A stretch of DNA of 64,000 bases from an uncultured Planctomycetia bacterium (GTDB lineage Bacteria > Omnitrophota > Gorgyraeia > 2-02-FULL-51-18). Position numbers and translations under genes: made by a program. Every line of letters begins with the position of its first letter. Positions within the stretch are counted from its first letter, which is position 1. The stretch covers positions 319,620 through 383,619 of the forward strand of contig CAZSGP010000002.1 in the NCBI GenBank assembly GCA_964606485.1, written 5' to 3'. Below, piece by piece: positions 17,539-45,357 of this stretch. Below the pieces are notes generated by a model. The model saw only the letters and a program-made list of their open reading frames with translations, had not been told where the DNA came from and did no database searches.

Positions 17539-17655
17539 TTGAACAATCTCCCAATGCAGCGGGTCCTGCCGGCGGTTGTCCGTTCGGAACCACCTGCGGT
17601 GGCTTCCGAGACGGACGCCTACCGCCGTCACCCGCTGCCAAGCCACACATTCTTG

Positions 17656-19412: not shown

Positions 19413-20969
19413 TTATATCACTCTTTGAAACTTGTCGATAGGAAGCTTCCAGACGGGCACCCCGCAGAAACGGTCCCCTTCCGGACAAATCGGCCGTACT
19501 TGTGACAAATTGCGAATCCCACACGGCGGCAAAATAAATTTGGCTAAATCCGGAAAAATCCGGCCTACTTCTTCGACCTCATCCTTACACATATTCCAAA
19601 TTTCTTCCTGAGCGGTGTAGCAGAGGCGCTTGGTCCACTTATGATGATGATTCAGAAGATCGCCCGACTCGTGAAAGCGAATCGGAAACGCATTGGGCAA
19701 AAGATACAGTGCAAATTCTTCTTTAACGCCTTCGTTTAACAGCGCCGTGATAGCCTTCCAAGTCTTGCCCATGGTTTCGGCATAAAACGCCATCGCTTCG
19801 GAAGACGCTTTGACCAAGGCTGGAATCACGTAGTCGGGTTTACCCGGCACAAAATGACGGTGCAGCACCGGCCGCGACGCGGGAGTCATGCGGTGGCGCT
19901 GATCCTGAGAGTCTGCGGTGTGGCTAATTTTTTTCATAAACGTAAAATGTGGGTGCGACATGGTTCGCGATAACTTCCCAAGCGTCGTTAGATTCAAGTT
20001 TTCTCCAAAATACGGATTTTTTGAAGGATCCATCACAAGATTGATCGCGTCCTGCTCCGACAAGCGGCTCTTAGACAGTCCAAGCACCGCTCGCACCGCA
20101 TCGGCCATACTCTTTTGGCCGTTTATTTTGTGATCCACTAGCTTAGACGTCTTAGAGCCGAGTAAAGTGTCGAACTCTTTTAAGAATTCTTCACGGCTTG
20201 TCACCTCGCTAGCAGGAGATTGGCTTAAGAAAAATTCGTATTCGGGCGTTTCTTCAATCGGCAGCGGGTCTTCGATATTCTTAAAAAACAAAGGATCGAC
20301 CGCGCTTACGGCGTCGATCATTTTTTGAATCACAATTTTTTGTTCGTGCGGCGTGTCAAATTGCTGCGAAAGCTTATTGTAGCGGTGGAGCGTGATCCCG
20401 CTCACGGTGTGGTACAAATGCGCATGCGTCGCAAGCGGCAAAACGTAGCGCGCCACTTCTTGCCCACGTTTTTGCAAAGCGCTTTTCCATTTTTTAAGCT
20501 CCGGGTCACGGTTCGGGAAAATTTTGGCGTACTGCGCGCGCACGACCGGTTCTAAAATTTGAATGAGTTTTTCATAGGCTTCCATTTGGAAGTGGATCGT
20601 TTCGGTGTAAATTTCGCGCGCCTTGCCCTCGATTGGAGGAATTGCAAAATTCTCAGCCGACACGTGCACGTAGCGCTGGCTCACCTGCTCCGAATTGTAG
20701 AAAGGATGCGAATGAAGAAACGACCAGATGAATTGCCGAGAAACTTTATCGAGAATGAATTGAAACGTGGCGTGCTGAATCGTGGTGTGATGACCGGCCT
20801 TGTAAATAGATTCGGCAATCCGGTCGCGAAGTTCGAGCGCTTTCTGGTCCTTATGAACGTCCTCGGAGGTGATCACTCGCGAGGAGTAACACGTGCGGGC
20901 CGTTGCGACAGCGTTGTCGAACGGATCCTTGAAATAATTTTCGAGTTTAACGATAGGTTCGGGAGTCAT
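19413..20969 (-). CDS. thyX: Tandem-duplicated (two-domain) ThyX-like FAD-dependent thymidylate synthase
   Basis: Start taken at MTPEPIVKL with a ThyX-like N-terminus (ATARTCYSS). The first half has a ThyX pattern (AGHHTTIQHATFQF..VSR..SQRYV) but a degenerate RHR. The second half carries a ThyX-like RHR..S motif (QRHRMTPASRP). The upstream 93 codons of the listed ORF are rejected. Confidence 0.55.
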   Translation of the reverse strand: MTPEPIVKLENYFKDPFDNAVATARTCYSSRVITSEDVHKDQKALELRDRIAESIYKAGHHTTIQHATFQFILDKVSRQFIWSFLHSHPFYNSEQVSQRYVHVSAENFAIPPIEGKAREIYTETIHFQMEAYEKLIQILEPVVRAQYAKIFPNRDPELKKWKSALQKRGQEVARYVLPLATHAHLYHTVSGITLHRYNKLSQQFDTPHEQKIVIQKMIDAVSAVDPLFFKNIEDPLPIEETPEYEFFLSQSPASEVTSREEFLKEFDTLLGSKTSKLVDHKINGQKSMADAVRAVLGLSKSRLSEQDAINLVMDPSKNPYFGENLNLTTLGKLSRTMSHPHFTFMKKISHTADSQDQRHRMTPASRPVLHRHFVPGKPDYVIPALVKASSEAMAFYAETMGKTWKAITALLNEGVKEEFALYLLPNAFPIRFHESGDLLNHHHKWTKRLCYTAQEEIWNMCKDEVEEVGRIFPDLAKFILPPCGIRNLSQVRPICPEGDRFCGVPVWKLPIDKFQRVI

Positions 20970-20973
20970 GGCC

Positions 20974-22782
20974 TTAGGCCGCGCACTCGCCTTTACCCAT
21001 CTCCAGCTTGAATGGCTTTCCAGGGTCGCCCAAATCTTCGTACATCTTAGGATCTTTGTCGAAGGCGGGAATATCCACAAACGGCGCCACAATTTCTTTG
21101 AGCTTCGGCACGCCAACGCGCCCAGACCAGTCAAGGAACGATTCTGTGGCGCCTTTATCTTTTTTGAATGCCTGCAGAACTGCTTCCGCCGCTTCAGGGG
21201 TACGCTTGGCCGGAATCTGCGCAATGCGCTTTCCGAACACCGCCACACCGTCTTTAGCGGTGTAACCGCCGATCATAAATTGGTAGTGAGGAACCGCTTT
21301 GCCGTCCACGGTTTTAGACGCGCCGTGAAAACCCATATTGGCCACGTGATGCTGACCGCACGAATTCGTGCAACCGGAAATTTTAATCGAAATATCTTTC
21401 AGCACTGAATCACTGCCAAGTCCATGTCCGTTTTCGAAAAGCTTACCCATTTCAAACGCGAGACCCTTCGAATGCGTGATGGCGATCTGGCAGGTATCGG
21501 CACCCGGGCAACGCGTAATGTCGGTGATTTCTTCAGCACCTTTTGCGGCAAGGCCATTTTGAGAGAGTTGCGAATAAAGTGCTTTTAAAGAATCTTTCGG
21601 AATCCAACACAGCAAAATATTCTGCAAAATGGTCGTGCGCATGCGTCCATCGCAAAACTCGCGCGCAATTTTGGCAACGGCTCTGGCCTGTGCCGGAGTT
21701 AAGTCTCCGAGCGGACAGCGCACGTTCACCGCAAAAAAGCCTTTTTGTTTTTGTTCGAAAGTATTGCTCTTGGCCCATTCGTCGTAACCAGGCAACACGG
21801 CCGGGCTTTGAGTCGGGGCGGGCTTCGGAAGAACCGGAGCTTTTTCTTCTTCCAGGCGCAAATTCCAAAAACTTTCTTTTCCGGAACCCGTCATCATCAC
21901 CTGTTTGCGTTCAATTTGAAATTCAGCGCGGAAAGTTTCAATGCCCCACTTCGCGACTAAAAATTTAATGCGCGCGCGGTTCTTGTCTTTGCGCTCGCCG
22001 TTTCGGTCAAACAAACGGATCACCGCTTCGGCGCTTGGAAGCATCAATTCAACGGGGCAGAATTCTTCGAGCATTTGTGCCGGGTATGGCAAACTTCCCA
22101 GTCCCCCACCCACAAAAATGCGAAATCCTTTTACTTCCTTGCCGTTGATATTTTTTTTTATCGCGACAAATCCAAGATCGTGTAAGCCGACCTTGGCGTA
22201 GTCCTCTTCAAGACTCGCTTCAAACGCGATTTTAAATTTGCGCGGCATGTTTTGACATACCGGATTTCTTAAGAAATATTGCGAAATGAGATCTGCGTAG
22301 GGCGCCACGTCAAACGCTTCCTTCGGAGAAATACCGGTGTAGTGCGACGCGCTGACATTTCGAACCGTGTTTCCGCAACCTTCGCGGGTCGTGAGACCCA
22401 CGAGCGACAACTCGCGTAAAACGGTAGGAATGTCCGTACGTTTAATTTCGTGAATCTGTATGGCCTGGCGCGTCGTGATATGCGAAAGTTTATTGGGCGT
22501 ATATTTTTCAGCGATATCTGCCACGCGTTCGAGCTGCAACGAATTGATGTGACCATAGCGGATTTTAATGCGGATCATGTGACGGTCATCGGAATTGCGA
22601 ATGCCGTACACACCGTTTTCTAAACGAAATTTGCGAAAATCTTCGGGGTCAAGTTCGCCCTTGTTTAAACGGTTGATTTCTTCTTGAGCACGCTTCAGCT
22701 CGGCTTCAATAATGGGGGGTAGTTCAGTAAGCTGTTTTTCTTCTTGGATCCGCGGGACAAGCTCTAATTCTTTGATTGCCAT
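20974..22782 (-). CDS. Nitrite/sulfite reductase hemoprotein (ferredoxin-dependent sulfite reductase-like)
   Basis: Two NIR_SIR ferredoxin-like halves. Siroheme/4Fe-4S cysteine motifs CPGADTCQIA and SGCTNSCGQHHVANMGF. Start taken at MAIKELELVP. Confidence 0.8.
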   Translation of the reverse strand: MAIKELELVPRIQEEKQLTELPPIIEAELKRAQEEINRLNKGELDPEDFRKFRLENGVYGIRNSDDRHMIRIKIRYGHINSLQLERVADIAEKYTPNKLSHITTRQAIQIHEIKRTDIPTVLRELSLVGLTTREGCGNTVRNVSASHYTGISPKEAFDVAPYADLISQYFLRNPVCQNMPRKFKIAFEASLEEDYAKVGLHDLGFVAIKKNINGKEVKGFRIFVGGGLGSLPYPAQMLEEFCPVELMLPSAEAVIRLFDRNGERKDKNRARIKFLVAKWGIETFRAEFQIERKQVMMTGSGKESFWNLRLEEEKAPVLPKPAPTQSPAVLPGYDEWAKSNTFEQKQKGFFAVNVRCPLGDLTPAQARAVAKIAREFCDGRMRTTILQNILLCWIPKDSLKALYSQLSQNGLAAKGAEEITDITRCPGADTCQIAITHSKGLAFEMGKLFENGHGLGSDSVLKDISIKISGCTNSCGQHHVANMGFHGASKTVDGKAVPHYQFMIGGYTAKDGVAVFGKRIAQIPAKRTPEAAEAVLQAFKKDKGATESFLDWSGRVGVPKLKEIVAPFVDIPAFDKDPKMYEDLGDPGKPFKLEMGKGECAA

Positions 22783-22795
22783 GTTCATTCTTCCT

Positions 22796-23920
22796 TTATA
22801 TAGGTGGCGTATTATAGCCTTTTTTGACGAGCCTATCAATTGCGGCCTCAAACGTCTGAGGCACCGGCAATAGGCTCAAGACAAAATGCCCCTCCTCTTC
22901 AAAATCAAAGAAGTAACCTGGATAAATCAAAACCCCTTCATTTTCAAGGAGTTCCATGGCGTAGGTTTCGTCATTTTTGCAGGAGGCAATGTGAAAAACA
23001 GCGTACCATCCCCCTTCCGAATCCAACACTTGGATAGGAGAGTTCAGGGCTATTTTACGAAAGGTCTCAAAATTTTGCGCGCATCGCTGATTGATCTCCG
23101 AAAGAATCCGTTCTTTTTTGGACAGCCACTGGGGCAATGCGTTTTGAACGGGTGCGCTGACTGATAAATACGCGTCGGAAATAATTTCCAATTTTTGAAG
23201 CGCTTGCATTTTTGATTTTTCGGGGCCGCTCACGACAATCCAGGATAATTTCATTTGGGGTAATGCCAAAATCTTAGAAATCCCACTCAAGGTAAATGTT
23301 AGAACCTCTGCGTTTCCGGCGAGTGACAGCGGAGCTTCTTTGCGGCCCCAGTCATAATCTAAAAACACTTCGTCAGAAATCAAAGCACAGCGGCTTTGAA
23401 TACAAAAGGCATTCCATTTATTAATTTCATCAATTCTCAAAAAATGGCCTGTGGGGTTATTGGGATTGACGAGAATCACGGCTCGAGGAATTTCCGTGTC
23501 TGATAATTTCACATCGTTTAATTCTGCAAGCTGATCCAAGAGCGGATAGCCTGGCTTTGGCGTGCGCACCGCATCTCCCGGATCGCACAAGAGTCGGAAT
23601 AAAAAAGAATAGGCTTCGCTGGTCCCCGCCGTCAGAAAAATCTGATTGGGTTCGACCCTAATATTTTTTTCCGCGTAATAACGGCAAATCGCCTCGCGCG
23701 TCATTTCCAGTCCGCGCGGATTGGGTTCGTATTTTAAATTTTCGACAGCCGTTAAACCTTCCAGCTGATTTTCGGAATAGAATTTAAATCCACAGCGCGT
23801 GGGATTGGATTCGGTGAGATCCAGGAAGTTTTTTTCGTGTTTTTTTTGTTCGATCAAATTAGAGAGCGGGTTCGAATCCCCCGACCAATCCGTTCGTTTT
23901 GAAAAATTCGTCATAGACAA
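22796..23920 (-). CDS. Class I/II PLP-dependent aminotransferase
   Basis: 374 aa. Aminotransferase fold with an SGISKILALPQMKLSW lysine region. Confidence 0.75.
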   Translation of the reverse strand: MSMTNFSKRTDWSGDSNPLSNLIEQKKHEKNFLDLTESNPTRCGFKFYSENQLEGLTAVENLKYEPNPRGLEMTREAICRYYAEKNIRVEPNQIFLTAGTSEAYSFLFRLLCDPGDAVRTPKPGYPLLDQLAELNDVKLSDTEIPRAVILVNPNNPTGHFLRIDEINKWNAFCIQSRCALISDEVFLDYDWGRKEAPLSLAGNAEVLTFTLSGISKILALPQMKLSWIVVSGPEKSKMQALQKLEIISDAYLSVSAPVQNALPQWLSKKERILSEINQRCAQNFETFRKIALNSPIQVLDSEGGWYAVFHIASCKNDETYAMELLENEGVLIYPGYFFDFEEEGHFVLSLLPVPQTFEAAIDRLVKKGYNTPPI

Positions 23921-26900: not shown

Positions 26901-27668
26901 ACGGCTAAAAAACTTTACGACGACGCGCAGACTCTCCTACAGAAAATAATTAAGGAAAAATTGCTCACCGCCAAGGGTGTGATTGGTCTTTTTCCGGCAA
27001 GTTCCGTGGGGGACGACATTGAAATTTATAATGAGAGCGGAAAAAAGGTCGTAGCAACCCTTCACACCCTGCGCCAACAGATTCACAAAGAAAAGGGCGA
27101 TCCGAGTTTTGCTTTAGCTGATTTTGTAGCGCCCAAAGAGTCTGGGCGACAAGACGCGATCGGCGCATTCGCGGTGACGACCGGCATTCGCATTGAAGCC
27201 CTGCTTCGCAATTTCGAAAAAAATCACGATGATTATAATTCGATCTTGGTCAAAGCCATCGCGGATCGCTTGGCAGAAGCATTCGCCGAAACCATGCACT
27301 TACAAGTGCGTAAAGATTATTGGGGCTATGCGAAAGACGAAAATTTATCCAATGAGGACTTAGTCGGTGAGCGCTACCGCGGTATCCGTCCGGCACCGGG
27401 CTACCCCGCCTGTCCCGATCACACTGAAAAACAAACGCTGTTTGAGCTCTTGCATGCTGAGCGCTTCACTAAAATTAAACTGACTGAGTCCTTTGCCATG
27501 TATCCCGCCTCATCGGTGAGCGGACTTTATTTTGCGCACCCAGAGGCCAAGTACTTTGCTGTCGGAAAAATTGCGAAAGACCAGGTCGAAGACTACGCCC
27601 GCCGCAAAGGCATGGACGTAAAAACCATTGAAAAGTGGCTCGCACCAAACCTTAATTACGAAATCTAG
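23997..27668 (+). CDS. metH: Cobalamin-dependent methionine synthase
   Basis: About 1224 aa. Contains a Hcy-binding domain, a pterin-binding domain, B12-binding motifs DVHDIGKN and GLSGL, and a C-terminal AdoMet reactivation domain. Start at ATG 23997 ([10 protein letters not shown]). Confidence 0.95.
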
Positions 27669-29344
27669 ATATTCTTTAAAGCGCGGTAGGTCTGCATGCC
27701 GCCCGAGAGATTCCGTGCATCTAAATTATTTTCGCGGAGCGCTCGAACCGCATAGTATGCGCGCTGCCCCACGCCGCACGTGACGTAAATAGGCCTATCC
27801 TTAGGAAGCTCTTTCAATCTGGATCGAAGCTCATTCAAGGGAATATTCACAGCCTCGTGGACGGAGAACTCTTTAAACTCCTCACGATTTCTGACATCTA
27901 AAATAAAATCATTTTTAGGATCAATCTTATCCCAGTGAGCGAGCGGCGCGTCTCCCCGAAGCGCGTTTGCGGCAATCATGCCGGCTACATTCACAGGATC
28001 TTTGGCGGCACCAAATTGAGGCGCATAACACAGCTCGGCCTCCTCTAAATCATAAACCGTTGCTTTCATTTGAATGGCCATGGCGATCACATCAATTCGC
28101 TTTTCAACGCCGTCTTCTCCGACGGCCTGCGCGCCCAACACTCGCCCGCTGTCCGGTGAGAATAGAAGTTTCAGATCAATCGGCTTCGCATCCGGAAAAT
28201 ACCCCGCGTGATGCCCCGGGTGCAAATATACTTTTTCGTAGGGTATATTCAATCGCTTTAATGTTTTTTCGCTCTCCCCTGTCATCGCTGCCACGCGATC
28301 AAACGCTTTGCAAACCGCCGTGGCCTGCACACCGCGAAACACCGATTTCCGGCCAAAAATATTATCCGCTGCAATGCGTCCTTGCCGATTCGCCGGACCC
28401 GCCAGTGGAATGCTCATCCAGTCCTGGGTAATAAAATCTTTCTTTTCAACCGCGTCTCCGACAGCCCAGATCGCCGGGTCCGATGTTTTCATCGTGTTGT
28501 CGACGCGAATTCCCCCGCGCGCACCAATTTCAAGCCCTGCTTCCTGCGCGAGTTTCGTTTCAGGCTTCACACCAATTGATAAAATCACAAGATCCGTCTC
28601 AAGACGCAGCCCGCCCTTGGATAAAACGGTTATTTTTCCGAGAGGCGCTTGTTCAAAACCCGTTAAAGCGTCGCCAAGATAGAGCGACACACCTTTTTTT
28701 CTCAAATCCTCGTGAACTCCCGCGACCATCTCCGCGTCAAAAGGCGGCAGCACCTGTGTTTGCATTTCTAAAATGGAAACTTTCATCCCGCAGCAATGCA
28801 CCAAGTTTTCAGCCATCTCAAGACCAATAAATCCCCCGCCGATCACCACGACGTTTTTGGCATTTTTAGAAAGAATCCATTCTCTGATTTTGCGGCTATC
28901 CGGAATTGTGCGAAGCGCAAAGATACCTGGCAAATCAATCCCGGGAAGCGGTGGCCGAATGGGCCCAGCGCCCGGCGACAGCACCAGCGCATCGTAACTT
29001 TCGGAATACACGCGGCCGGATCCAAGCTCTTTGATCTGCAGGACTTTTTTTACGCGGTCAATCGACAAAACTTCATTTTCAGTGCGAACCTGGATATTAA
29101 ACCGCTCCTTAAAAAGCTCGGGAGTCGCGACAATCAACTTTCCCTCATCTTTAATCACGTCCCCCACAAAATAAGGCAAACCGCAGTTTGCAAAAGAGAC
29201 GTATTTTCCACGGTCGATCAAAATAATTTCAGCTTTCTCCGACAACCGACGCGCACGCGCGGCACTGGATGCGCCGCCCGCAACCCCACCCACAATAACG
29301 AGCTTCATGACGCGCAGCATCCTTTTGAATTTTTTTGATTCCAC
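27665..29344 (-). CDS. CoA-disulfide reductase-family FAD/NAD(P) oxidoreductase with a C-terminal rhodanese domain (CoADR-RHD)
   Basis: FAD motif [20 protein letters not shown] with active-site Cys ([10 protein letters not shown]), a second NAD(P) Rossmann motif, and a C-terminal rhodanese with Cys ([11 protein letters not shown]). The true start may be the internal MKLVIVGG. Confidence 0.8.
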
Positions 29345-29847
29345 GGCATTTTAGCTAAGATGAGTCCCATCGTGCAGGTATCCGTCACAGCCGAAAACAT
29401 CAGGCCGCAGGCGACAAAAACCGAAAGTCCCACCCAATAAATATTCACCCAGTGGGCTAGCATTAACCCCAATAGCACGAGAAACCCAGCCGCGAAGCGC
29501 ACCTGGCGCTCAAGGCCCCAGACACGGGAGACTCCCTTTGTGGTCGATTTTCCAGCCGCGGACCAAGCGGCCAAGCCGCCCTCTAAAACGCGCACCTCTT
29601 GAAAACCGGCTTGCATTAATTTTTGAGCGGCTTGCCCCGCGCGATTGCCGCTTCGGCACAGCACATACACCGGTTTATTTTTATCCAAACCGGATTTGGG
29701 TAGTTCTGCGTCAAATCGAGACAGCGGAATCAGCTTCGCTGCACTTAGGTGCTCCGCCTCATGCTCGGCCGGCTCACGCACATCAATAATCTGACAGTGA
29801 GCGTTATTTAAAGCATTCTCAATATCCAACACGCTGCATTTTTTCAT
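29305..29847 (-). CDS. Rhodanese-domain protein with a C-terminal YgaP-like (DUF2892) transmembrane region
   Basis: 180 aa. Rhodanese active site VYVLCRSGNRAG followed by a hydrophobic C-terminal segment. Confidence 0.75.
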   Translation of the reverse strand: MKKCSVLDIENALNNAHCQIIDVREPAEHEAEHLSAAKLIPLSRFDAELPKSGLDKNKPVYVLCRSGNRAGQAAQKLMQAGFQEVRVLEGGLAAWSAAGKSTTKGVSRVWGLERQVRFAAGFLVLLGLMLAHWVNIYWVGLSVFVACGLMFSAVTDTCTMGLILAKMPWNQKNSKGCCAS

Positions 29848-29848
29848 C

Positions 29849-30142
29849 TCATTTTCCTCCGTGACTGCGAATACAATCGAGAACCCTTAAAACATTGGGG
29901 TAAATAACCGTGTAATAACGAAAATTTTTGTCGGCACTACTTTCAACAATGCCGCATTGTTTGAGCGAAGCCAAATGCTTGGATACCGCGACCTGGCTTA
30001 AACCCAATTTCTTGACGAGCTGCCCCACCGATAATTTTTGATGCTCCAAGCTTTCTACGATTCTCAGCCGGTCCGGGTGAGAGATGCAGCGCAACACTTT
30101 TGCCGCCTGCTTCACCCTTGTTAAAGTCAATCGCTCCTTCAT
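29849..30142 (-). CDS. ArsR/SmtB-family transcriptional regulator (candidate BigR/SqrR-like persulfide sensor)
   Basis: 97 aa. wHTH with HPDRLRIVESL, SVGQLVKKLGLSQVAVSKHLASL. Cys residues sit in the alpha2 region (LRCISHP) and the C-terminal helix (VLDCIR). Confidence 0.8.
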   Translation of the reverse strand: MKERLTLTRVKQAAKVLRCISHPDRLRIVESLEHQKLSVGQLVKKLGLSQVAVSKHLASLKQCGIVESSADKNFRYYTVIYPNVLRVLDCIRSHGGK

Positions 30143-30147
30143 GAATT

Positions 30148-30185
30148 CTCCTATATACTATATTTGGAATATACTACTTTTGGAA
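30148..30185. promoter_or_regulatory. Candidate ArsR operator and divergent promoter region
   Basis: AT-rich repeats ATATACTATAT..GGAATATACTAC lie between the divergent ArsR gene and the FNR-like gene. Confidence 0.35.
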
Positions 30186-30271
30186 CTTATTGTCAACCCC
30201 ATTCAAAGGCTTGGCGTATTGAAGCGCTCCGGGTTTCTGTTATACTATTTTGCAATCAAGGAGAACTTATG

Positions 30272-30994
30272 GCAGAGAAAGCTCGGTTTTACGACGCCAA
30301 GATGGTGAAGATTTTTAATTTGAGCGAAACGGTGAAGCATTTCGTGCTTCAATACCCCGATGGCGCCGACACAAGTTTCATTGCCGGGCAGTTCATGCAG
30401 GTTCACCTTGAAAAAGAAGGCAAGCCGCACAAAAAATCTTATTCCATCGCCTCTTCCCCCTCTCTGGCCAAAGCTAAAAATCAAATCGAGCTGTGCATCA
30501 AAAAAGTAGAAGGCGGCTACGTCTCCACCTGGTTCTTCGGCCTCAAAGAAGGAGATGTGATTAAAACAGCGCTCCCCTACGGCGTGTTCACGATCAAGGA
30601 GCCTTTGCAAAAGCACATGGTTTTTGTGGGAACTGGCACCGGCGTTGCCCCTTTGCGCGGCATGATTCAGAATCTTTACGAAAAAAATTACACGGGTGAA
30701 ATCACACTCGTCTTTGGAAATCGGTACGACACAGACATTCTTTATCTAGATGAATGGAAAAAGCTGGAAGCCCAGCATAAGAACTTTCATTTTATCCCGA
30801 CGGTGAGCCGCTCCCCTCATTGGACCGGCGAGAAAGCCTACGTACAAGACATTATCAAAGGGAAGTTCTCGGGAAATGTGGAAGGGCTTGATTTTTACGG
30901 CTGCGGGCTCGTTCCAATGTGCCAGCAATTAAAAGCAACGCTAATCGAGATGGGCGTGGCTAAAGAACAAATTCACTTCGAGCAGTTTACTTAA
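30272..30994 (+). CDS. Ferredoxin-NADP reductase-type FAD/NAD(P)-binding oxidoreductase
   Basis: Start taken at MAEKARFYD. FAD-binding RxYS motif (KKSYSIASSP) and NAD(P) motif MVFVGTGTGVAPLRG. Confidence 0.75.
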   Translation, partial: AEKARFYDAKMVKIFNLSETVKHFVLQYPDGADTSFIAGQFMQVHLEKEGKPHKKSYSIASSPSLAKAKNQIELCIKKVEGGYVSTWFFGLKEGDVIKTALPYGVFTIKEPLQKHMVFVGTGTGVAPLRGMIQNLYEKNYTGEITLVFGNRYDTDILYLDEWKKLEAQHKNFHFIPTVSRSPHWTGEKAYVQDIIKGKFSGNVEGLDFYGCGLVPMCQQLKATLIEMGVAKEQIHFEQFT

Positions 30995-30999
30995 AATAT

Positions 31000-31542
31000 T
31001 TAGCTTAACCCAAACCCTTTTTTCTTGTAGTCGTCCATGAGGCGACGAATGTCACCTTCGGCGGAACGCGCAATCTGGCCACCCACAAAGAGCAGCACAC
31101 TAAACTGCCACACGTCTTCGGGGCCTGTCAGTAAACCGGAGTGAACGTCTTCCTCGCGCTGAAATTTTTCCATATAACTTTTGATCGCGCTAGAAACCTT
31201 TCCCTCGTGGACATCAATTCCTGAGGTCTGGTTATTGTACTTGAATGACGGGAAGCTCACGCCGCGCACGAGAAAAAAAGTATTCAAAAAATCCTGCTTA
31301 AAGTCGGACTCCCCTTCAAACTCAAACCCTTCAAACTGCGGCAAATTAAATGGGAGGATAATAGAGGGCTTCTCAACAATCACTTCCCCCTTTCGAACCA
31401 CGGTATCTCCGGAGTTGACCGAAGAGGCCGCTAAAAATACATAGGGAATCCGTGTCGATTCATACGAATGAAGCGGCTGAACGCGCGGACGCACGATATC
31501 GGTCTTCTTTAATGCTTTTTCCCAGGCGTCTTGGATGGTCAT
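31000..31542 (-). CDS. Hypothetical protein
   Basis: 180 aa ORF with no recognisable motifs. It is translationally adjacent to the DUF309 gene. Confidence 0.4.
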   Translation of the reverse strand: MTIQDAWEKALKKTDIVRPRVQPLHSYESTRIPYVFLAASSVNSGDTVVRKGEVIVEKPSIILPFNLPQFEGFEFEGESDFKQDFLNTFFLVRGVSFPSFKYNNQTSGIDVHEGKVSSAIKSYMEKFQREEDVHSGLLTGPEDVWQFSVLLFVGGQIARSAEGDIRRLMDDYKKKGFGLS

Positions 31543-31842
31543 TTATAAATCCTTTAAAAGTTTTTCCATGCGTTTCACCAGAGCGCTCACATCTAAACCC
31601 AGCGCCGCTGGCTCGTATTTCTGAAGATAAGCGATAGAGCTCTTTGCTAAACCTTTGGCCCCGCTAAAAATCTTGCGATCAAACTGATACACCGCAGCGG
31701 CAGCCTGAATCACACCCTGATAAAGCTCTCGGTTTGGGTCAGACTTTGGCGTTTCAAGCCACAGGCCTTCGATCACCTCGTGACACTCAAAATACTCTTT
31801 TTGTTCTAGAAGCCGAAGGCCTTCGACCCAACGTTTATCCAC
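31543..31842 (-). CDS. DUF309-domain protein
   Basis: 99 aa with FECHEVIEGLWL, matching the DUF309 consensus (F..Y.EAHEvlE.lW). Confidence 0.5.
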   Translation of the reverse strand: MDKRWVEGLRLLEQKEYFECHEVIEGLWLETPKSDPNRELYQGVIQAAAAVYQFDRKIFSGAKGLAKSSIAYLQKYEPAALGLDVSALVKRMEKLLKDL

Positions 31843-31898: not shown

Positions 31899-32975
31899 TT
31901 ATTTCAGGGAGAGCTTTCTAAGATATTTATACCCGTAAAGCCCGGTCGAATGACCATCGCTCCAGGCAATGTGAAGCGCGTAGCGCCCAACAGTTTGAAT
32001 AGACGCCGCTTTTAGGTCTTGAGGAATTTTTTGAGGGTCTAATAATTTTTTTCCGGAAAATTCATCTACGCAGGCGGCACACGGGCACGCCACTCGAAGA
32101 TCTTTGGCTGAAAAAATACTTAATTTTCCGTCGGACCACTCCACTAGCACTTCCGAGTGGCCTGCTCCATTAGTTTTTTTGACAGAAATTTGAGATCCGC
32201 TCTCGTGAGCGCGGCCTTTAACTTGTTCGTCTAATTTTTTAGCAATCTCCGAAAAATCCCGCGTCACTGCGTGTTCCAAGGCATACCGAATCATGGGTTT
32301 TCCGTTATCGGAAGCTTCCCGCAACTCCGGCTCAAGCGCAATTTCTCCTAGGAATGGAATTTCTAGCACTGCCGCCGCTTTTTCTGTCCCTTTGTGGCCG
32401 AAAATTTCATGCTTCGTTGAGCAATTAGAACAAACAAAATAACTCATATTTTCGACGATGCCTAAGATTGGGACGTTCAGCTTGTCGAACATCACAATCG
32501 CTTTTTGAGCCACACTCCACGCCAAGTCCTGCGGCGTCGACACAATCAAGGCTCCCGTCACGGACGCGCTCTGACAAAGACTGAGCTGAACATCTCCTGT
32601 GCCGGGCGGCAAGTCGATCACGAGATAATCGAGCTCCCCCCACTCCACATGACCCAAAAAATCCTGAATCATTTTATTGAGCATCGGCCCGCGCCAAATC
32701 ACCGCTTCATTCGCCGGCACAAAAAAACCCATGGAAATGACGCTAATTCCAAAGGCTTGAACCGGAAAAATATGACCCCCTGACGACAGGGGCTTTTCGG
32801 TAATTCCTAAAATCGTTGGAATACTCGGGCCGTAGACGTCGGCGTCCATCAATCCAACTTTATAGCCTTGAGCCGACAACGCAAGCGCCAAATTGGCACT
32901 GAGTGTCGATTTTCCAACGCCGCCCTTGCCGCTAGCGACTGCGATAATATTGCGAATAGAATTAAGAGTATGCAT
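31899..32975 (-). CDS. Mrp/NBP35 (ApbC) Fe-S cluster carrier ATPase fused to a C-terminal DUF971 domain
   Basis: P-loop AVASGKGGVGKST, the Mrp CxxC (CSNCS), and a C-terminal segment with CPCAACVDE..HIAWSDGHSTGLY typical of DUF971. Confidence 0.8.
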   Translation of the reverse strand: MHTLNSIRNIIAVASGKGGVGKSTLSANLALALSAQGYKVGLMDADVYGPSIPTILGITEKPLSSGGHIFPVQAFGISVISMGFFVPANEAVIWRGPMLNKMIQDFLGHVEWGELDYLVIDLPPGTGDVQLSLCQSASVTGALIVSTPQDLAWSVAQKAIVMFDKLNVPILGIVENMSYFVCSNCSTKHEIFGHKGTEKAAAVLEIPFLGEIALEPELREASDNGKPMIRYALEHAVTRDFSEIAKKLDEQVKGRAHESGSQISVKKTNGAGHSEVLVEWSDGKLSIFSAKDLRVACPCAACVDEFSGKKLLDPQKIPQDLKAASIQTVGRYALHIAWSDGHSTGLYGYKYLRKLSLK

Positions 32976-33017: not shown

Positions 33018-34250
33018 CTAGATTTTATTTAAAGGGGCCGACAACTCGCGGTTGTTGGGACGTGTGAAAACCGCTTGAGCCACGCTGATATTGCGCATGC
33101 TGAACGCGGCTTCGCAGTAGGAGAGATAATAGTTCCACTTGCGCATAAATTTTTCGTCGAAGCCCAGCGCTTTCACGGCATCGGAATTTTGGTTAAAAGC
33201 CTCTCTCCAAATCGAAAGTGTCCTGGCGTAAAACGGCGTCATGTCCTCGTAAGCGTGCAAGCCCAAGTCCCCGGTGCGCCCGACCGAACGCATGATCTGT
33301 CCAAAGCTCGGCAAAATGCCGCCCGGGAAAATATGTTTTTGGATCCAATCCACGCTCTTTCGAAAACTTTCGTAACGATGATCGGGAGACAAAATCATCT
33401 GCAAGCCCAAAAGCCCGTTTGGCTTGAGCAAATGGTGGCATTGGGCAAAAAATTCTCCTAAAAAATCATGCCCGACCGCCTCGATCATCTCAATTGAAAC
33501 AATCTTGTCATACCTCCCCTTCAGATGCCGGTAATCCGAAAGCTCAACATGAATTTGATGAGAGAGCCCTTTTTCTTTGAAGCGCTTTTGCATAAACTCA
33601 TACTGTTCTTTTGAAATCGTCGCCGTCGTAACACGGCAACCCAGATTCACTGCAGCAAATTCTGCAAACCCTCCCCATCCTCCGCCGATTTCCAGCACAT
33701 GATCCTCACGGCGAATCAGAAGTTTGCGGCACATCACCTCATACTTGGAAGACTGGGCTTCCCCGAGAGACTGATAGTCGTTTTTAAAATAAGCGCACGA
33801 ATACGTCATTCCCGGATCCAAGAACGTTTCAAAAAAGGCGTTGCCGAGATCGTAGTGTTCTCTGATATTTTTGCGTGAGCCGGCCACCGTGTTTTGATTC
33901 AGGTGATGTTGGAAGCGGCTCAAAATTTTAAGCAAATTTAGCCGAGTACGCTTCTGACGGGAGCCCATGAGCGTCGGATGCGTTTCAGCGTTTAAAATCA
34001 TCCATTCAACGACCTTCACAATGTTGCTGGTTTCCCAATCGCCGTCAACATACGATTCTCCAAAACCGATGTCTCCATGCAACACGCATTTGCGAAAGAA
34101 ATCATCGTTTAAAATTTGAATATCCGCTTCGGCGGCCGAACCCTTGCGGCCAAATGTGAGGTGTTGACCGGTCGGCAGCGTCATCCGAAGGTAGCCCTCT
34201 GTCATGGGCTCCATCACTTTCAAAACAATTGAGCGGTAAGTGGTCTTCAT
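33018..34250 (-). CDS. Cyclopropane-fatty-acyl-phospholipid synthase family methyltransferase
   Basis: 410 aa with SAM motif VLEIGGGWGGFAEFAA and CFA-synthase architecture. Confidence 0.85.
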   Translation of the reverse strand: MKTTYRSIVLKVMEPMTEGYLRMTLPTGQHLTFGRKGSAAEADIQILNDDFFRKCVLHGDIGFGESYVDGDWETSNIVKVVEWMILNAETHPTLMGSRQKRTRLNLLKILSRFQHHLNQNTVAGSRKNIREHYDLGNAFFETFLDPGMTYSCAYFKNDYQSLGEAQSSKYEVMCRKLLIRREDHVLEIGGGWGGFAEFAAVNLGCRVTTATISKEQYEFMQKRFKEKGLSHQIHVELSDYRHLKGRYDKIVSIEMIEAVGHDFLGEFFAQCHHLLKPNGLLGLQMILSPDHRYESFRKSVDWIQKHIFPGGILPSFGQIMRSVGRTGDLGLHAYEDMTPFYARTLSIWREAFNQNSDAVKALGFDEKFMRKWNYYLSYCEAAFSMRNISVAQAVFTRPNNRELSAPLNKI

Positions 34251-34276
34251 AATATTCCCATTATTCCTGCATGCTT

Positions 34277-35074
34277 TTAGCCGGAACGAAAGCGCCTTTG
34301 AACGTCTCTTTGCAAATCAGGCCTATCTTCTTTTAAGCGGTGCGGAATTTTTTTTAAACTCAAAACCAACGCATGCCAATGTATCATAAAAATGATCTGC
34401 AGCGTCACAAATGGAAATCGAAGGGTATTGATCCATAAGTTTTTGGCGCAGAGCTCCTTCTTTTTTCCGGTCAACACCGTCGCTAGAATCTTCTGGCCGC
34501 CCTTCCAATCATCCACCCGGATCGACAACTGTTCTTTAGGCAGTGCGACCGAAAAATGCAGTTCCGCATCCAAATCGATAAATGGGGAAATATAATAAAA
34601 CTTTGTTTGCCGGTCTGAAAATTCGGCACTCTTAAAACAATCTCTTCCTAAAAAATACGCCTTTAGCTCTCCAAAGGTATTTCCGACCTCAGCAACAAGT
34701 GCTAACGGCTTGCGATTGGCATCGAAACAAAAGTAAAACGAAACCGGGTTAAAAATGTAGCCGAAAAAACGCAGATTGGTCAGAAGAAGAACCTGCGAAA
34801 CCGGCTCTGACACTCCGTTTTGTCTCAAATACTCTAAAACGTTTTCTTTGGCCGAATTTTTTCCGAACTGCAAATGATCGGAGTCTCTAAATTCGTAAAT
34901 CCCCTTAAGTTTTAGAGTTTTTAATTCATCCAAGTCGAGGCAAAACATAAAAAAGCTTTGCGAAAACTTGTAGGACCTAGGCGTAAAACGCTGGTGGGTA
35001 GTGCGGCATTCATAGAGACAGGACTGCATGGGCTGCCTCCTGTCCGGATTGAAACGCGTCCTCATGAAAACCAT
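34277..35074 (-). CDS. DUF1365-family protein
   Basis: 265 aa with HQRFTPRSYKFSQSFFMFCLDLDEL, matching the DUF1365 consensus. This family typically accompanies CFA synthase and amine oxidase genes. Confidence 0.7.
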   Translation of the reverse strand: MVFMRTRFNPDRRQPMQSCLYECRTTHQRFTPRSYKFSQSFFMFCLDLDELKTLKLKGIYEFRDSDHLQFGKNSAKENVLEYLRQNGVSEPVSQVLLLTNLRFFGYIFNPVSFYFCFDANRKPLALVAEVGNTFGELKAYFLGRDCFKSAEFSDRQTKFYYISPFIDLDAELHFSVALPKEQLSIRVDDWKGGQKILATVLTGKKKELCAKNLWINTLRFPFVTLQIIFMIHWHALVLSLKKIPHRLKEDRPDLQRDVQRRFRSG

Positions 35075-36263
35075 ACTTAAAATAGCTCCCGCAAAATTTA
35101 ATTCTCGAGCCTTGATTTAACTGGGGCAGCTCGTTCTGGGCGGCCACCGCGCCGGGATTATAGACCGGATGGAGATAAGTCCCGCTCCAGAGAATTTGTG
35201 AAGAGCGCACGAGACCCGGGTCGTTGATGGAAACAAAATAATTCTTTTTTTCCGAAACGCGCTGCAGGCGGTTCATCCAGTACACCGTTGTCGCAAAGGG
35301 TTTTCCGGCCGCTCTGGTTCCCGCGTAGTAATTCCAGGCTGACCACGCGCGACGCTTGCGGGGCATCACACTCTCGTCGGTGTGAAGAAGCGCTTCATTT
35401 TTTTGGTACCGAAATTTTTGAAGCAATTCTCTTTCCCCGGGCCGCGGGTTTTTGAGCATAGAAACCGACTCATCGGCATGAGCGGCTAAAACCACGGCGT
35501 CAAACTCGCGGCGCTCTCCATTGACCGTTTCGACCATTACTTTATCTCCAAATGACTCCACACGATGAACGCCGCAGCTTAAAAAAACATTTCCCTTAAA
35601 AAAATCCATAACCCTGTCACGATACACTCGACTGCCGCCCGTCACCGTTCTCCATTTTAAATGCCCGGTCAGACCAAGCAATCCGTGGTTTTTAAAAAAA
35701 CGCACGAGCGTCTCGGCTGGGAAATCAAGCATTTCGCGAGCTTCGGTCGACCAAATAGCCGAGCTCATGGGGAGAATGTATTTGTTCATAAAATCTTCCC
35801 CGAAGCACTTTTTTTTGGCGTAGTCCTTGAGCGACATATTCCTAAAACGAGGGTCATCCAAAATTTCACCGCAGGTTTTGTTGAAGCGGTTAATGTCTCC
35901 CAGCATTTTCCAAAATGGGATATTTAAAATATTCCGGCGCTGCGCAAAAAGGCCGTCTAGGCCCGTGCCGCTGTACTCTAGCCCCGAAGCCGCATGCTGG
36001 AAACTAAATGACATATCCGTCTCTTGGGTTGGAATCGAAAGTTCCGCAAAAAATTTCACAAGGCCAGGATAGGTGACTTCGTTGTAGACGATAAATCCGG
36101 TGTCGATAGGGATCGGACGGCCGTCTTCATCTGCGAGGACCGTGTTCGTGTGGCCGCCGGGGCGCGCGTCTTTCTCAAAGAAAGTCACCTCACATGCATC
36201 TTTTAAGTAATACCCGCAGGACATGCCCGCGATGCCGGTTCCAACAATCGCAATTTTTTTCAT
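35010..36263 (-). CDS. FAD-dependent oxidoreductase (amine-oxidase-like)
   Basis: Start taken at MKKIAIVGTGIAGMSCGYYL (Rossmann GXGXXG). Amine oxidase fold. Confidence 0.75.
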   Translation of the reverse strand: MKKIAIVGTGIAGMSCGYYLKDACEVTFFEKDARPGGHTNTVLADEDGRPIPIDTGFIVYNEVTYPGLVKFFAELSIPTQETDMSFSFQHAASGLEYSGTGLDGLFAQRRNILNIPFWKMLGDINRFNKTCGEILDDPRFRNMSLKDYAKKKCFGEDFMNKYILPMSSAIWSTEAREMLDFPAETLVRFFKNHGLLGLTGHLKWRTVTGGSRVYRDRVMDFFKGNVFLSCGVHRVESFGDKVMVETVNGERREFDAVVLAAHADESVSMLKNPRPGERELLQKFRYQKNEALLHTDESVMPRKRRAWSAWNYYAGTRAAGKPFATTVYWMNRLQRVSEKKNYFVSINDPGLVRSSQILWSGTYLHPVYNPGAVAAQNELPQLNQGSRIKFCGSYFKYGFHEDAFQSGQEAAHAVLSL

Positions 36264-37339
36264 TTTTTTACGAATAAATAATGCCCCACAAACCATTCCG
36301 ACCCGCGCTTAAATCCAAACAGTTCCTCGCAGGCCATAAAAAATACCCGCCATCTCACCCACCACTTCAGGGCGTCATCCTTGCCGTAGGTTTTTTCTAA
36401 AATTGGCCAAATTTCTTTTTTGTGACGGTCCATATTTTTAAGCCACGCCCGGCACGTTTTTTGATAATGCGTCCCGTCTACCCGCCAGTGATACTGAATT
36501 TTTAAATGCTCGCTAAACTCCGCAAATAAATTTTCGCTCGGCATAATTCCACCCGTAAAAAAGTGCTGAGCAATCCAATCGCTCGGGTCCGTGTGGTCGT
36601 AGGCATACGCAAAGCGCTTATGGCAAAAAATATGCACAAACAGTTTTCCCTCGGGCCTTAGCCAGCGGCTTATTTTTTGAAAAAGGAGCTGATAGTTTCG
36701 AACATGTTCGAACATTTCAACGGAAACCACTCGGTCAAAGGTCTGATCGGATTCAAACTCCGCAATATCTGCGGTGAGCACCGTTAAGTTGGTTAGTTTT
36801 TTCTTTAATGCTTTGTCTTGAATATATTCCCGTTGCGTCGAAGAATTTGAAAGTGCGGTGATGCGGCAGTCCGGGAAATGCTCTGCCAGATACAGACACA
36901 TTGATCCCCAGCCGCAGCCCAATTCTAAAATATTCATCCCGTTGTAAATTTCAGCGCGCTCGATGCTCATCTCGAGCATGTCTTTCTCGGACAGATCCAG
37001 CCCGCTCAGCTTCGCGTGAGGATTCGGTTCGCGGTAGGCAGGCTGCGACCCAGGAAATTTTGTGGGCGGGCGCCAATAGCCGCCGCTATACTTCATATGC
37101 CTTCCTAAAATAAATTTAAAAAACTCGGTGGGTAGCTCATAATGCTGGCGATTCGCGTCCTGCGTATGAACCGTGATAGGGCTCTTCATGAGCGTCTTTA
37201 CAAAATCATTGAATCTCTTCTTTTGAGCCTCTTCGCGCCCGGAATTTTCCTGATCCAGTTTTTGACTGAGCAAGCGGCGCATGCCAAAACGAATGAGAAA
37301 ATCGGGCAGCTGATTTTTTTCGAGAAGGCTTTCGATCAT
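36260..37339 (-). CDS. Cyclopropane-fatty-acyl-phospholipid synthase family methyltransferase (second copy)
   Basis: 359 aa with SAM motif ILELGCGWGSMCLYLAE. Confidence 0.85.
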   Translation of the reverse strand: MIESLLEKNQLPDFLIRFGMRRLLSQKLDQENSGREEAQKKRFNDFVKTLMKSPITVHTQDANRQHYELPTEFFKFILGRHMKYSGGYWRPPTKFPGSQPAYREPNPHAKLSGLDLSEKDMLEMSIERAEIYNGMNILELGCGWGSMCLYLAEHFPDCRITALSNSSTQREYIQDKALKKKLTNLTVLTADIAEFESDQTFDRVVSVEMFEHVRNYQLLFQKISRWLRPEGKLFVHIFCHKRFAYAYDHTDPSDWIAQHFFTGGIMPSENLFAEFSEHLKIQYHWRVDGTHYQKTCRAWLKNMDRHKKEIWPILEKTYGKDDALKWWVRWRVFFMACEELFGFKRGSEWFVGHYLFVKK

Positions 37340-38130
37340 TTCTTTTTAAACCACGGTACAAATACGCTGGTTGATTTTTGATACCGGCGGTAAAACTCAC
37401 CTTTGGACTTTAGAGACTGGGCTTCTGCCGGGGGAATTCCGCTGCCGAACACTAAAAAATAAAACATCAGCACAGGACTACAAATCGCCCAAATCCCTCC
37501 GGGTGCCGGCAATGCAAAAAGAAAATACCCCACCCACATCGTCCATTCAAAAAAATAATTGGGGTGACGGGAAAAATTCCATAGTCCCGCCTCGCAGACT
37601 TTGCCCTTATTCGCCGGGTCGCTTTTAAAACGCGCAAGCTGTCCGTCCGCCGAGGCTTCACCGATAAAACCAACCCACCAAACACCGATGCCGATCCACT
37701 CTAAAATCTCAAATTCTGGCTTGGGATTGGCATCGATAATGAGAAACGGAACCGATAAAACTGCTGCAGCGATGGCCTGAATTTGAAAAAAAGCAAAGAA
37801 GTTGAGTTTTAAATTTTTTTTCCAATCTACGCGTAATTTCGCATAGCGCGCATCTTCTCCTTTTTCTTTAAAGAGGCGGTGAAACAAATGGCGCGACAGC
37901 CGCCAAGCCCACAGCGCGACCATGATTGAAAGCGCTGCTTGTCTTCTTTCAAAACCATGCGCCTGGAAGTCATAAAAGAAAGCTAAAACCGCCAAACTTA
38001 ATGTCCAGACCGGGTCAACGATACTGAAGCGGTCAATGCGCACCGCGATGATCCAGAGCACCGCCATGATGGCGCAAGACAAGAAAAGTCCGTACATCCA
38101 AGTCGTTGCGAGAGAATTGAAGAGATTCAA
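37336..38130 (-). CDS. DUF1295 membrane protein (ICMT/steroid-reductase-like)
   Basis: 264 aa polytopic protein with GLWNFSRHPNYFFEWTMWVG (RHPNY motif). Confidence 0.7.
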   Translation of the reverse strand: MNLFNSLATTWMYGLFLSCAIMAVLWIIAVRIDRFSIVDPVWTLSLAVLAFFYDFQAHGFERRQAALSIMVALWAWRLSRHLFHRLFKEKGEDARYAKLRVDWKKNLKLNFFAFFQIQAIAAAVLSVPFLIIDANPKPEFEILEWIGIGVWWVGFIGEASADGQLARFKSDPANKGKVCEAGLWNFSRHPNYFFEWTMWVGYFLFALPAPGGIWAICSPVLMFYFLVFGSGIPPAEAQSLKSKGEFYRRYQKSTSVFVPWFKKK

Positions 38131-38136
38131 AATTTT

Positions 38137-39866: not shown

Positions 39867-39870
39867 AAAT

Positions 39871-39985
39871 CTACCTCCCCGGCACTTCGTGTCCGCCCCT
39901 CCTTGGTAGGGAGGGGAAATCCTACTCGTCTTTCCTCCCCTTACCAAGGGGAGGTGTCCACCGCAGTGGACGGAGGGGTCTAAAC
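39871..39985. repeat. 110-nt multi-hairpin intercistronic repeat element, copy A (suf region)
   Basis: Contains the palindromes CCCCTCCTTGGTAGGGAGGGG, TCCCCTTACCAAGGGGAGG and GTCCACCGCAGTGGAC. Near-identical to copies at 40565 and 43797. It lies directly upstream of the nadA start. Confidence 0.8.
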
Positions 39986-40549: not shown

Positions 40550-40564
40550 AGCTATCTCCTTTTT

Positions 40565-43780: not shown

Positions 43781-43796
43781 AATTCTCCTTTTCAAA

Positions 43797-45349: not shown

Positions 45350-45357
45350 AGTTTCCT

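Follow-up and report, generated by a model that had tools for sequence, protein, structure and literature searches.

Persulfide-sensing repressors of the ArsR family share a simple signature: all known members are defined by one pair of cysteines, located in helices alpha2 and alpha5 (PMC10509353). In SqrR, the sensing pocket is built from alpha2, alpha5 and alpha1' (bioRxiv 10.1101/2020.03.22.001966). The ygaVP operon of Escherichia coli joins an ArsR-type regulator to a rhodanese, is autorepressed, carries a sqr box, and is derepressed by sulfide (PMC9774250). In Enterococcus faecalis, the sulfide-induced enzyme CoAPR acts together with rhodaneses; its own rhodanese Cys is persulfidated in sulfide-treated cells, and a swinging coenzyme A (CoA) arm passes sulfur to the Cys at the flavin site (PMC9405070). 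Here, we describe a related three-gene operon, arsR - rhd/ygaP - npsr(coaPR), in a 64,000-nt stretch of DNA (the window; contig CAZSGP010000002.1, positions 319,620 to 383,619) from an uncultured Planctomycetia bacterium placed in the Omnitrophota by GTDB. Its regulator lacks both cysteines of the known pair. We assign a probability of roughly 0.62 to the explanation that this is an autoregulated reactive-sulfur operon whose regulator senses through a different residue, Cys90, by a route other than that of BigR and SqrR.

The operon and its control region comprise the following features, with the supporting evidence in brackets:

29849-30142, minus strand: predicted ArsR-family winged-helix repressor, 97 aa (Pfam, NCBIfam, phmmer against the PDB, alignments, AlphaFold2 (AF2) model, Foldseek)
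29305-29847, minus strand: membrane-anchored YgaP-type rhodanese, 180 aa (Pfam, PDB matches, linkage to the regulator)
27665-29308, minus strand: fusion of a CoA-disulfide reductase (CoADR) and a rhodanese, Npsr/CoAPR type, 547 aa (phmmer against the PDB, Pfam, NCBI product)
30168-30196, minus strand: sigma-70-type promoter of the operon, TTGACA (30196-30191), 17-nt spacer, TATATT (30173-30168)
30155-30186, read on the minus strand: predicted operator of two abutting 16-bp boxes, consensus ATWC-N8-GWAT (tandem repeat and conservation)

The list of open reading frames (ORFs) and the domain scans confirm the three minus-strand genes at the positions given by an initial annotation, which had been made from the DNA alone. 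The arsR stop codon is followed after 1 nt by the ATG of the ygaP-like gene, and the stop codon of the latter overlaps the ATG of the CoADR-rhodanese gene (29308) in an ATGA, an arrangement that couples the translation of the three genes. The longest ORF of the third gene spans 27665-29344(-), and its true start is most likely the ATG at 29308, because the NCBI product has 547 aa, the orthologue alignments start at that Met, and the ATGA stop/start overlap lies there. We thus read the locus as one minus-strand operon of three tightly coupled genes. The earlier proposal that the three genes are transcribed together as a sulfur module is borne out by this coupling and by a gene linkage that is conserved across phyla.

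To follow this linkage, nine close homologues of the regulator (57-65% identity) were found and their contigs compared. The order ArsR, YgaP-type rhodanese, CoADR-rhodanese is kept on every contig that is long enough; the flanking genes differ each time. A scan at one genome per species yielded 80 loci, which were searched by tblastn with the window proteins. The regulator adjoins both enzymes in about 55 loci from three phyla (Omnitrophota, Planctomycetota and Verrucomicrobiota), where the ygaP-like gene is always linked to it. About 45 of the linked loci belong to Verrucomicrobiota/Opitutae, where the order of the two enzyme genes is reversed and the regulators are only 36-45% identical. The regulators nearest to the window protein come from metagenome-assembled genomes (MAGs) of Omnitrophota and Planctomycetia, and the relatives are from groundwater and anoxic MAGs. 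In one of the linked loci (L052, position 3968 onward; Opitutae bacterium BS10, BGOM01000006.1), arsR, CoADR-rhodanese and the ygaP-like gene form one 850-aa stop-free ORF, either a natural fusion supporting functional linkage or a coincidence of assembly or frame in a GC-rich genome.

Other members of the clade are associated with different enzymes of the same chemistry. In two sister loci (L015, L016), a regulator 51-55% identical to that of the window heads an operon encoding a YgaP-like rhodanese, a TauE/SafE exporter and a metallo-beta-lactamase (MBL)-rhodanese fusion, which we take to be the effector set of the BigR operon. Cys90-bearing homologues at 35-38% identity from Poseidoniales, a Methanobacteriota MAG and Marinimicrobia (L065, L069, L075, L080) head clusters with genes for DsrE-like proteins, rhodanese-MBL fusions and TauE, and a fused 4Fe-4S-dicluster/NrfD (Psr-like) gene is also found among the neighbours of such distant homologues. 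Around homologues without Cys90 (L085-L092), tblastn with the cassette proteins, the only query used there, gave no match. The clade is consistently tied to genes that handle sulfane sulfur, and the exchange of one set of persulfide-handling effectors for another in the sister loci lends further support to the sulfur-related role suggested by the initial annotation. Gene neighbourhood has been used in the same manner to support the assignment of inducers to ArsR clusters (PMC10509353).

Both enzymes of the window operon match characterised sulfur-transfer proteins. The YgaP-like protein contains a Pfam Rhodanese domain (2e-19) with the active-site loop CRSGNRA, followed by a C-terminal two-helix DUF2892/YgaP transmembrane domain (YgaP-like_TM, 1e-6), and it matches both domains of E. 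coli YgaP in the PDB (transmembrane 2mpn, 5e-11; rhodanese 2moi, 3e-6). All YgaP-like orthologues carry the motif TD(T/W)C(G/T)MG, whose conserved Cys belongs to the second membrane helix. The window copy alone ends in GCCAS, and this C-terminal tail was ruled out as a relay motif, as it is not conserved. The third protein consists of Pyr_redox_2, Pyr_redox_dim and a C-terminal Rhodanese domain in Pfam. Over its full length it matches Shewanella loihica Npsr (3nta, E 1e-176), Bacillus anthracis CoADR-RHD (3icr, 5e-168) and E. faecalis CoAPR (8a56, 4e-141) in a phmmer search of the PDB. Both catalytic cysteines are kept, in SFANCGLPY (flavin-proximal) and CGVGQRA (rhodanese), compared with SFANCGLPY and CQVGLRG of Npsr; their counterparts in E. 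faecalis CoAPR are C42 and C508, respectively, the latter being Ser in the variant Npsr chain 3ntd. The third gene product is accordingly predicted to be an NAD(P)H-dependent persulfide reductase of the Npsr/CoAPR type.

The control region upstream of arsR is that of a probably autoregulated promoter. The sigma-70-type promoter matches the consensus at 11/12 positions, the best score of the promoter scan in the region, and a ribosome-binding site, AGGAGA (30152-30147), precedes the arsR ATG. Among the orthologous upstream regions checked for the hexamers (L003 and L007/L008), TTGAC(A/T)-17-TATA(C/T)T lies at the same place. The AT-rich repeats noted earlier as a possible operator are a 16-nt tandem direct repeat (30153-30184), and the two boxes deduced from it lie end to end on the promoter. 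On the minus strand, box 1 reads GTTCCAAAAGTAGTAT (30186-30171) and fills the -35/-10 spacer, and box 2 reads ATTCCAAATATAGTAT (30170-30155) and covers the -10 element and +1; in short form they are GTTC-N8-GTAT and ATTC-N8-GTAT. The core ATTC-N8-GAAT is that of the SqrR operator, and the part of the ygaVP promoter footprinted by YgaV contains a similar sequence (PMC9774250; bioRxiv 10.64898/2026.05.15.721447).

Conservation of these boxes argues for their function. The site at 30155-30186 is the only one in the window to score at least 14/16, a two-box score that is reached in 12/14 independent orthologous loci against 0.1% of shuffles (shuffle probability 0.001). Two boxes exactly 16 bp apart, one in the -35/-10 spacer and the other over -10/+1, occur in 7/8 independent orthologous upstream regions, the exception being a locus with a single box of at least 6/8 (L012). 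Perfect ATTC-N8-GAAT boxes are found in four loci (L003, L005, L007, L010), for example TATATTCCATATATGGAATATA in L007. In the verrucomicrobial loci, one perfect ATTC-N8-GAAT stands just upstream of arsR in 42 of 44 cases; the N8 spacer takes 20 different sequences, and therefore selection has acted on the half-sites, leaving a phylogenetic footprint. The match to the sqr-box core and the constant position in the orthologous promoters thus favour the idea that the AT-rich repeats are the operator. The residue at position i+5 of the recognition helix, which in SqrR is the base-contacting Gln66, is Lys in the window group and Gln in the Opitutae group, and half-site position 3 is T or A in the former and strictly that of ATTC in the latter; this co-variation is suggestive, nothing more. 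In upstream regions from Poseidoniales, the palindrome ATTAAG-N4-CTTAAT takes the place of the sqr box. For the window locus, we hold the architecture of operon, repressor and operator to be highly probable.

By analogy, the locus resembles ygaVP with a CoAPR gene added, as well as the regulons of BigR, SqrR and CstR. As in ygaVP, the gene for a predicted ArsR-type autorepressor lies directly upstream of, and is co-oriented and probably co-transcribed with, a gene for a membrane protein of rhodanese and DUF2892 domains, with a sqr-box-like site at the promoter. In contrast to the window regulator, YgaV uses the canonical Cys31 and Cys98; the two regulators are only about 31% identical, and ygaVP has no counterpart of the Npsr/CoAPR gene. 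The cst-like operon of E. faecalis and Npsr of S. loihica share with the window locus the CoADR with its C-terminal rhodanese and both catalytic cysteines. However, the E. faecalis operon is controlled by CstR, a dithiol regulator of the CsoR family rather than an ArsR protein, and its rhodaneses are soluble and not of the YgaP membrane type.

The regulator itself is a typical ArsR protein in its fold. It matches Pfam HTH_5 (E 3e-14), and the AF2 model (predicted local distance difference test score, pLDDT, 84.9) has helices at residues 7-20, 23-31, 39-46, 50-62 and 84-93 and strands at 66-71 and 74-79. Together with Foldseek, which gives a TM-score of about 0.8 to HlyU, NolR, CzrA, SqrR and BigR, these results identify the ArsR/SmtB winged helix alpha1-alpha2-alpha3-alpha4-beta1-beta2-alpha5. 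The top matches of a phmmer search of the PDB are NolR, HlyU, BigR, SqrR and YgaV. The sole NCBIfam model passed is a general metalloregulator/ArsR model, HTH_metalloreg (74.6 bits, cutoff 55). The BigR equivalog model NF040642 is not passed by the window protein (46.7 bits, cutoff 155) or by any of 18 clade members (best E-value 2e-15). TsoR (NF045707) is the top specific NCBIfam match, at 50.9 bits against a cutoff of 115, and was set aside; the literature on it gave no lead.

The position of the cysteines distinguishes this protein from the known sensors. The initial annotation had attributed to it a sensing pair like that of BigR and SqrR, one Cys being in the alpha2 region and one in the C-terminal helix, and had named an alignment with those two proteins as the check, a mismatch of the Cys register counting as refutation. 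Sequences of BigR, SqrR and HlyU were taken from PDB alignments, that of YgaV was checked against the peptides ILC31ML and KNVYC98P (PMC9774250), and the register was judged on gap-free HMMER and MAFFT alignments. The alpha2 Cys position (RLxxxC; BigR C42, SqrR C41, YgaV C31, HlyU C38) is occupied by Glu30 (RLRIVES), and the C-terminal alpha5 position (BigR C108, SqrR C107, YgaV C98) by Gly96. Since both positions are vacant, the register does not match, and by the test just described the protein is not a dithiol sensor of the BigR/SqrR type. Of the two cysteines named earlier, Cys90 does lie in alpha5, in the motif C-I-R-S-H and six residues upstream of the canonical alpha5 Cys, whereas Cys19 belongs to the last turn of alpha1 and not to alpha2. 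A third, Cys63, follows just past the recognition helix; it is unique to the window protein and is ruled out as a sensor residue.

This pattern separates the regulator from SqrR of Rhodobacter capsulatus, BigR of Xylella and Agrobacterium, HlyU and PigS, the sensors of cluster 4 in the ArsR sequence similarity network. With these it shares the fold (27-35% identity), an ATTC-N8-GAAT-type operator over the promoter, and rhodanese or sulfurtransferase genes nearby; the TauE and MBL-rhodanese genes of the BigR operon recur in the two sister loci. It differs in lacking both defining cysteines, with Cys90 six residues upstream and partner cysteines that are lineage-specific or missing, as well as in the two abutting operators, the Lys in place of the SqrR Gln at i+5, and the absence of an NCBIfam equivalog. 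Set against the BigR/SqrR/YgaV group, the regulator agrees in fold, operator and neighbourhood but departs from it in both cysteines and in its score against the curated model.

Across the clade, Cys90 is the one cysteine that persists. It is invariant in the alignment of 18 diverse cassette-linked regulators (18/18), is the only Cys conserved throughout, and is followed at +2 by Arg or Lys (C-x-R/K). Cys19 is missing in several cassette-linked orthologues, and the additional cysteines vary by group:

Omnitrophota-like group, including the window regulator: Cys19, with or without Cys31
L018 and L019: Cys95
Opitutae: Cys13 and Cys84
Planctomycetia-type proteins (L011, L014-L017): none

All of these variable partners lie on helices of the pocket, namely alpha1 (13, 19), alpha2 (31) and alpha5 (84, 95). 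A pattern-free HMMER search of 1.84 billion representatives produced 109 single-domain representatives of the clade. Cys is found at position 90 in 100 of the 109, 15 of which have no other Cys, and at position 30 in 1/109; C30 and C96 occur together in 0/109. Glu30 proved typical of the whole clade when re-checked in this set. Many further relatives (P0020, P0026-P0028, P0037 and others) are tandem duplications with two ArsR domains per 180-235-aa chain, several of which, on inspection, keep the alpha5 Cys in both halves; these proteins may act as covalent pseudo-dimers. A conceptual model for a clade with variable partners is provided by the one-Cys and two-Cys forms of OhrR, a MarR-family regulator with an invariant sensing Cys and a lineage-dependent resolving Cys. 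OhrR differs in its fold, responds to organic peroxide as the oxidant, and has no homology to the window regulator.

Gene content, coupling, promoter, operator conservation, cysteine positions and genomic associations are observed; from them we infer how the operon would be repressed, what would induce it and what would happen at Cys90. An ArsR-family dimer, or probably two dimers on 32 bp, would bind the two abutting sqr-box-like operators, which overlap the spacer, the -10 element and +1 of its own promoter, and so would shut off the operon. Persulfides or polysulfides, arising where sulfide or elemental sulfur (S0) is present, would modify thiols of the regulator and release it from DNA; that reactive sulfur is the signal seems probable. 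Cys90 would be the residue modified, an assignment towards which the evidence leans slightly. In the window protein, Cys19 would be the presumed resolving partner of Cys90, which we regard as doubtful. In relatives, Cys31, Cys95 or Cys13/Cys84 might take this part, or there may be no partner; single-Cys proteins could follow a Cys90-Cys90' route or one that uses a low-molecular-weight thiol. Gap-free extension of the CzrA and NmtR alignments would put Cys90 no more than one or two residues from the crossing of alpha5 and alpha5', with a register uncertainty of about one residue. Once expressed, the membrane-anchored YgaP-type rhodanese would pick up and transfer sulfane sulfur. The rhodanese Cys of the Npsr/CoAPR-type enzyme would accept the persulfide, which the redox Cys, FAD and NAD(P)H would reduce to H2S.

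Several observations weigh against this explanation. Cys90 aligns with Ala, Thr, Leu and Gly in BigR, SqrR, HlyU and NolR, and because the residues at this position are small or hydrophobic, Cys90 may be partly buried and structural. The hidden Markov model profile behind the set of 109 representatives rewards a Cys at position 90. Part of the invariance of H22 and E30 among the genome-scan regulators stems from the scan itself, whose pattern contained both residues, and this invariance was discounted as evidence. The window boxes are imperfect, with 6/8 and 7/8 matches to the strict ATTC-N8-GAAT. Finally, the C-x-x-x-H formed by Cys90 and His94, or the C-x-x-x-C of relatives with Cys at position 94 (i+4; 27 of the 100 Cys90-bearing representatives), can be read equally as a metal site.

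Among the alternatives, the one that survives best, although unlikely, is a general sensor of thiol oxidants or electrophiles (peroxide, hypochlorous acid, disulfide stress) similar to one-Cys or two-Cys OhrR or RexT, controlling a CoA-disulfide-reductase antioxidant operon. Sensors of peroxides or electrophiles typically have a lone reactive Cys beside an Arg, the product of the third gene is a member of the CoADR/NADH-peroxidase superfamily, and ArsR proteins that sense reactive oxygen species tend to sit near NADH oxidoreductases (PMC10509353). However, the oxidoreductase is of the rhodanese-fused Npsr/CoAPR subtype with both persulfide-relay cysteines. The alternative effectors of related loci, which include MBL-rhodaneses resembling persulfide dioxygenase (PDO), TauE, DsrE and Psr-like proteins, are specific to sulfur, and the regulator has no similarity to the alpha3 Cys-Cys site of RexT.

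Two further alternatives are of lower and equal probability. One is a sensor of metals, metalloids or organometals in which Cys90 and His94 (Cys90 and Cys94 in relatives) of both protomers form a site at the alpha5/alpha5' interface. A gap-free extension of the HMMER alignments places His94 at the ligand position of CzrA H97 and SmtB H117, Cys/His or Cys/Cys pairs spaced i, i+4 are common, and the NCBIfam model that the protein passes is the general metalloregulator model. The ygaVP operon, too, was first found as a tributyltin-inducible operon, as cited in PMC9774250. The rest of the alpha5 site does not follow. In CzrA and NmtR alignments extended without gaps, with a register uncertain by about one residue, the alpha5 ligands known from the literature fall at about positions 81-84 and 94-98; the N-terminal ones correspond to Y81/N83 (or P82/V84) and not to Asp or His, so that D-x-H is replaced by Y81-P-N83. 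From the ligand set D-x-H...H-x2-(H/E) of CzrA, SmtB and NmtR, only His94 coincides, and many cassette-linked orthologues have Gln, Ser or Tyr in its place. Moreover, none of about 60 loci links the regulator to a metal transporter, a metallothionein or an ars gene; the linked genes all handle sulfane sulfur.

The other keeps the operon and its regulator and changes the role to respiratory or assimilatory reduction of S0 or polysulfide, induced by elemental sulfur. The best PDB match of the third protein, S. loihica Npsr, was described with "implications for sulfur respiration" (a title cited in PMC9405070); the origin of relatives in groundwater and anoxic MAGs and the Psr-like subunits beside distant homologues agree with such a role. 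Against it, the window cassette contains no quinone-linked or energy-conserving partner, and in being small, autoregulated and equipped with a membrane rhodanese the operon is like the stress modules ygaVP and cst. Detoxification and energy-yielding reduction of S0 or polysulfide are inseparable by sequence. The operon most likely detoxifies reactive sulfur.

It is very improbable that the regulator is a repressor like NolR of Sinorhizobium fredii, with a structural Cys90 and control through its own abundance only. NolR is the best PDB sequence match (E 9e-11), has no sensing Cys, and carries an acidic residue and Ser at the alpha2 Cys position (ILDSL, compared with IVESL in the window protein), and Cys90 aligns with buried-type residues in relatives. 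In contrast to the window regulator, NolR has Gly at the Cys90 position and no sulfur-gene neighbourhood; it is a global regulator of nodulation with a different operator. Cys90 is kept over 35-65% identity in bacteria and archaea while every other Cys varies, and the homologues that lack it are those around which the cassette search found nothing. Least probable of all is a canonical BigR/SqrR-type sensor, in which an alpha2-alpha5 pair within one protomer forms a di- or tetrasulfide with persulfide: HlyU, BigR, SqrR and YgaV are among the closest neighbours in sequence and fold, and the operator type and sulfurtransferase neighbourhood are common to both, but the residues at the two positions, the empty C30/C96 count, the NF040642 score and the single-Cys orthologues refute it at the sequence level.

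Beyond the operon, the initial annotation had pointed to further genes of the window, one divergent from the sulfur module and others nearby with a sulfur theme:

30270-30994, plus strand: FNR/Fre-like flavin reductase with FAD_binding_6 and NAD_binding_1 domains, 241 aa (Pfam)
16375-17646: ThiF and rhodanese domains, MoeZ-like (domain scan)
20974-22851, minus strand: NIR_SIR sulfite/nitrite reductase (domain scan)
About 40.7-46 kb: Rrf2-suf operon (domain scan)

The divergent FNR-like gene is real, with its true start most likely at ATG 30270 behind an AGGAGA, but falls outside the module. A promoter-like site of its own (30219-30246) lies 32 bp away from the operator, and of the operator-like boxes near the gene the best, read by eye, scores 5/8. 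In the loci compared, it was seen beside the cassette only on contigs identical to the window and in no other locus. For these reasons it was rejected as a member of the regulon. The MoeZ-like protein, the sulfite reductase and the suf genes are likewise present as described, but none keeps a place beside the cassette in other loci; these genes and MetH are housekeeping functions and were rejected as evidence for a sulfur theme. In none of the other loci examined did the Rrf2-suf iron-sulfur (Fe-S) cluster genes adjoin the ArsR cassette. In the window, the region 38883-45963(-) encodes an Rrf2-family regulator, SufB, SufC, SufD, SufS, NifU_N (SufU-like), an Nfu-type scaffold and NadA.

Other genes of the window were recorded in passing. 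In 19413-22851(-), the NIR_SIR ORF and a 611-aa ORF containing two Thy1 (ThyX) stretches have about 275 nt in common; the upstream start is probably miscalled. Between the flavin reductase and the suf region lie a 180-aa ORF without a Pfam or NCBIfam match (31000-31542(-)), a DUF309 protein (31543-31842(-)) and an Mrp/ApbC Fe-S carrier fused to GBBH-like_N (DUF971) (31899-32975(-)). These are followed by a run of lipid-modification type (33018-38865(-)) with two cyclopropane-fatty-acid-synthase-like methyltransferases, DUF1365, an amine-oxidase-type flavoprotein, DUF1295 (steroid-reductase-like) and a fatty-acid desaturase. By far the largest ORF of the window is a single uninterrupted one of 5186 aa (48070-63630(-)).

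Annotation pipelines and surveys of the family search for the alpha2-alpha5 Cys pair. The window locus is an entry point to a broad, uncharacterised regulator clade that has the contextual hallmarks of a sulfur-stress regulator (sqr box, rhodanese, persulfide reductase, PDO-like protein, TauE and DsrE) yet does not have that pair. A literature search of incomplete coverage returned no description of a single-Cys or alpha1/alpha5 ArsR sulfur sensor, nor of an ArsR-CoADR-rhodanese operon. We tentatively propose that a hitherto unrecognised class of ArsR reactive-sulfur sensors exists in bacteria of the Planctomycetota-Verrucomicrobiota-Chlamydiota group, Marinimicrobia and marine archaea. Such sensors would depend on a single obligatory Cys90 near the alpha5/alpha5' contact and would act through an intersubunit Cys90-Sn-Cys90' bridge, persulfidation or a mixed polysulfide with CoA. 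Resolving cysteines would have been added independently on alpha1, alpha2 or alpha5, and recognition of the sqr box would have been kept.

If such a class exists, ArsR sulfur sensors would have evolved at least twice on the same pocket, the chemistry by which thiols sense sulfur would extend to a one-Cys or intersubunit mechanism, and persulfide specificity would become testable without a preformed dithiol pocket. The compact regulator-operator pair (97 aa, 32 bp) could serve as a biosensor part. Sulfide and S0 regulons would become annotatable in uncultured Omnitrophota, Planctomycetota, Opitutae and Poseidoniales.

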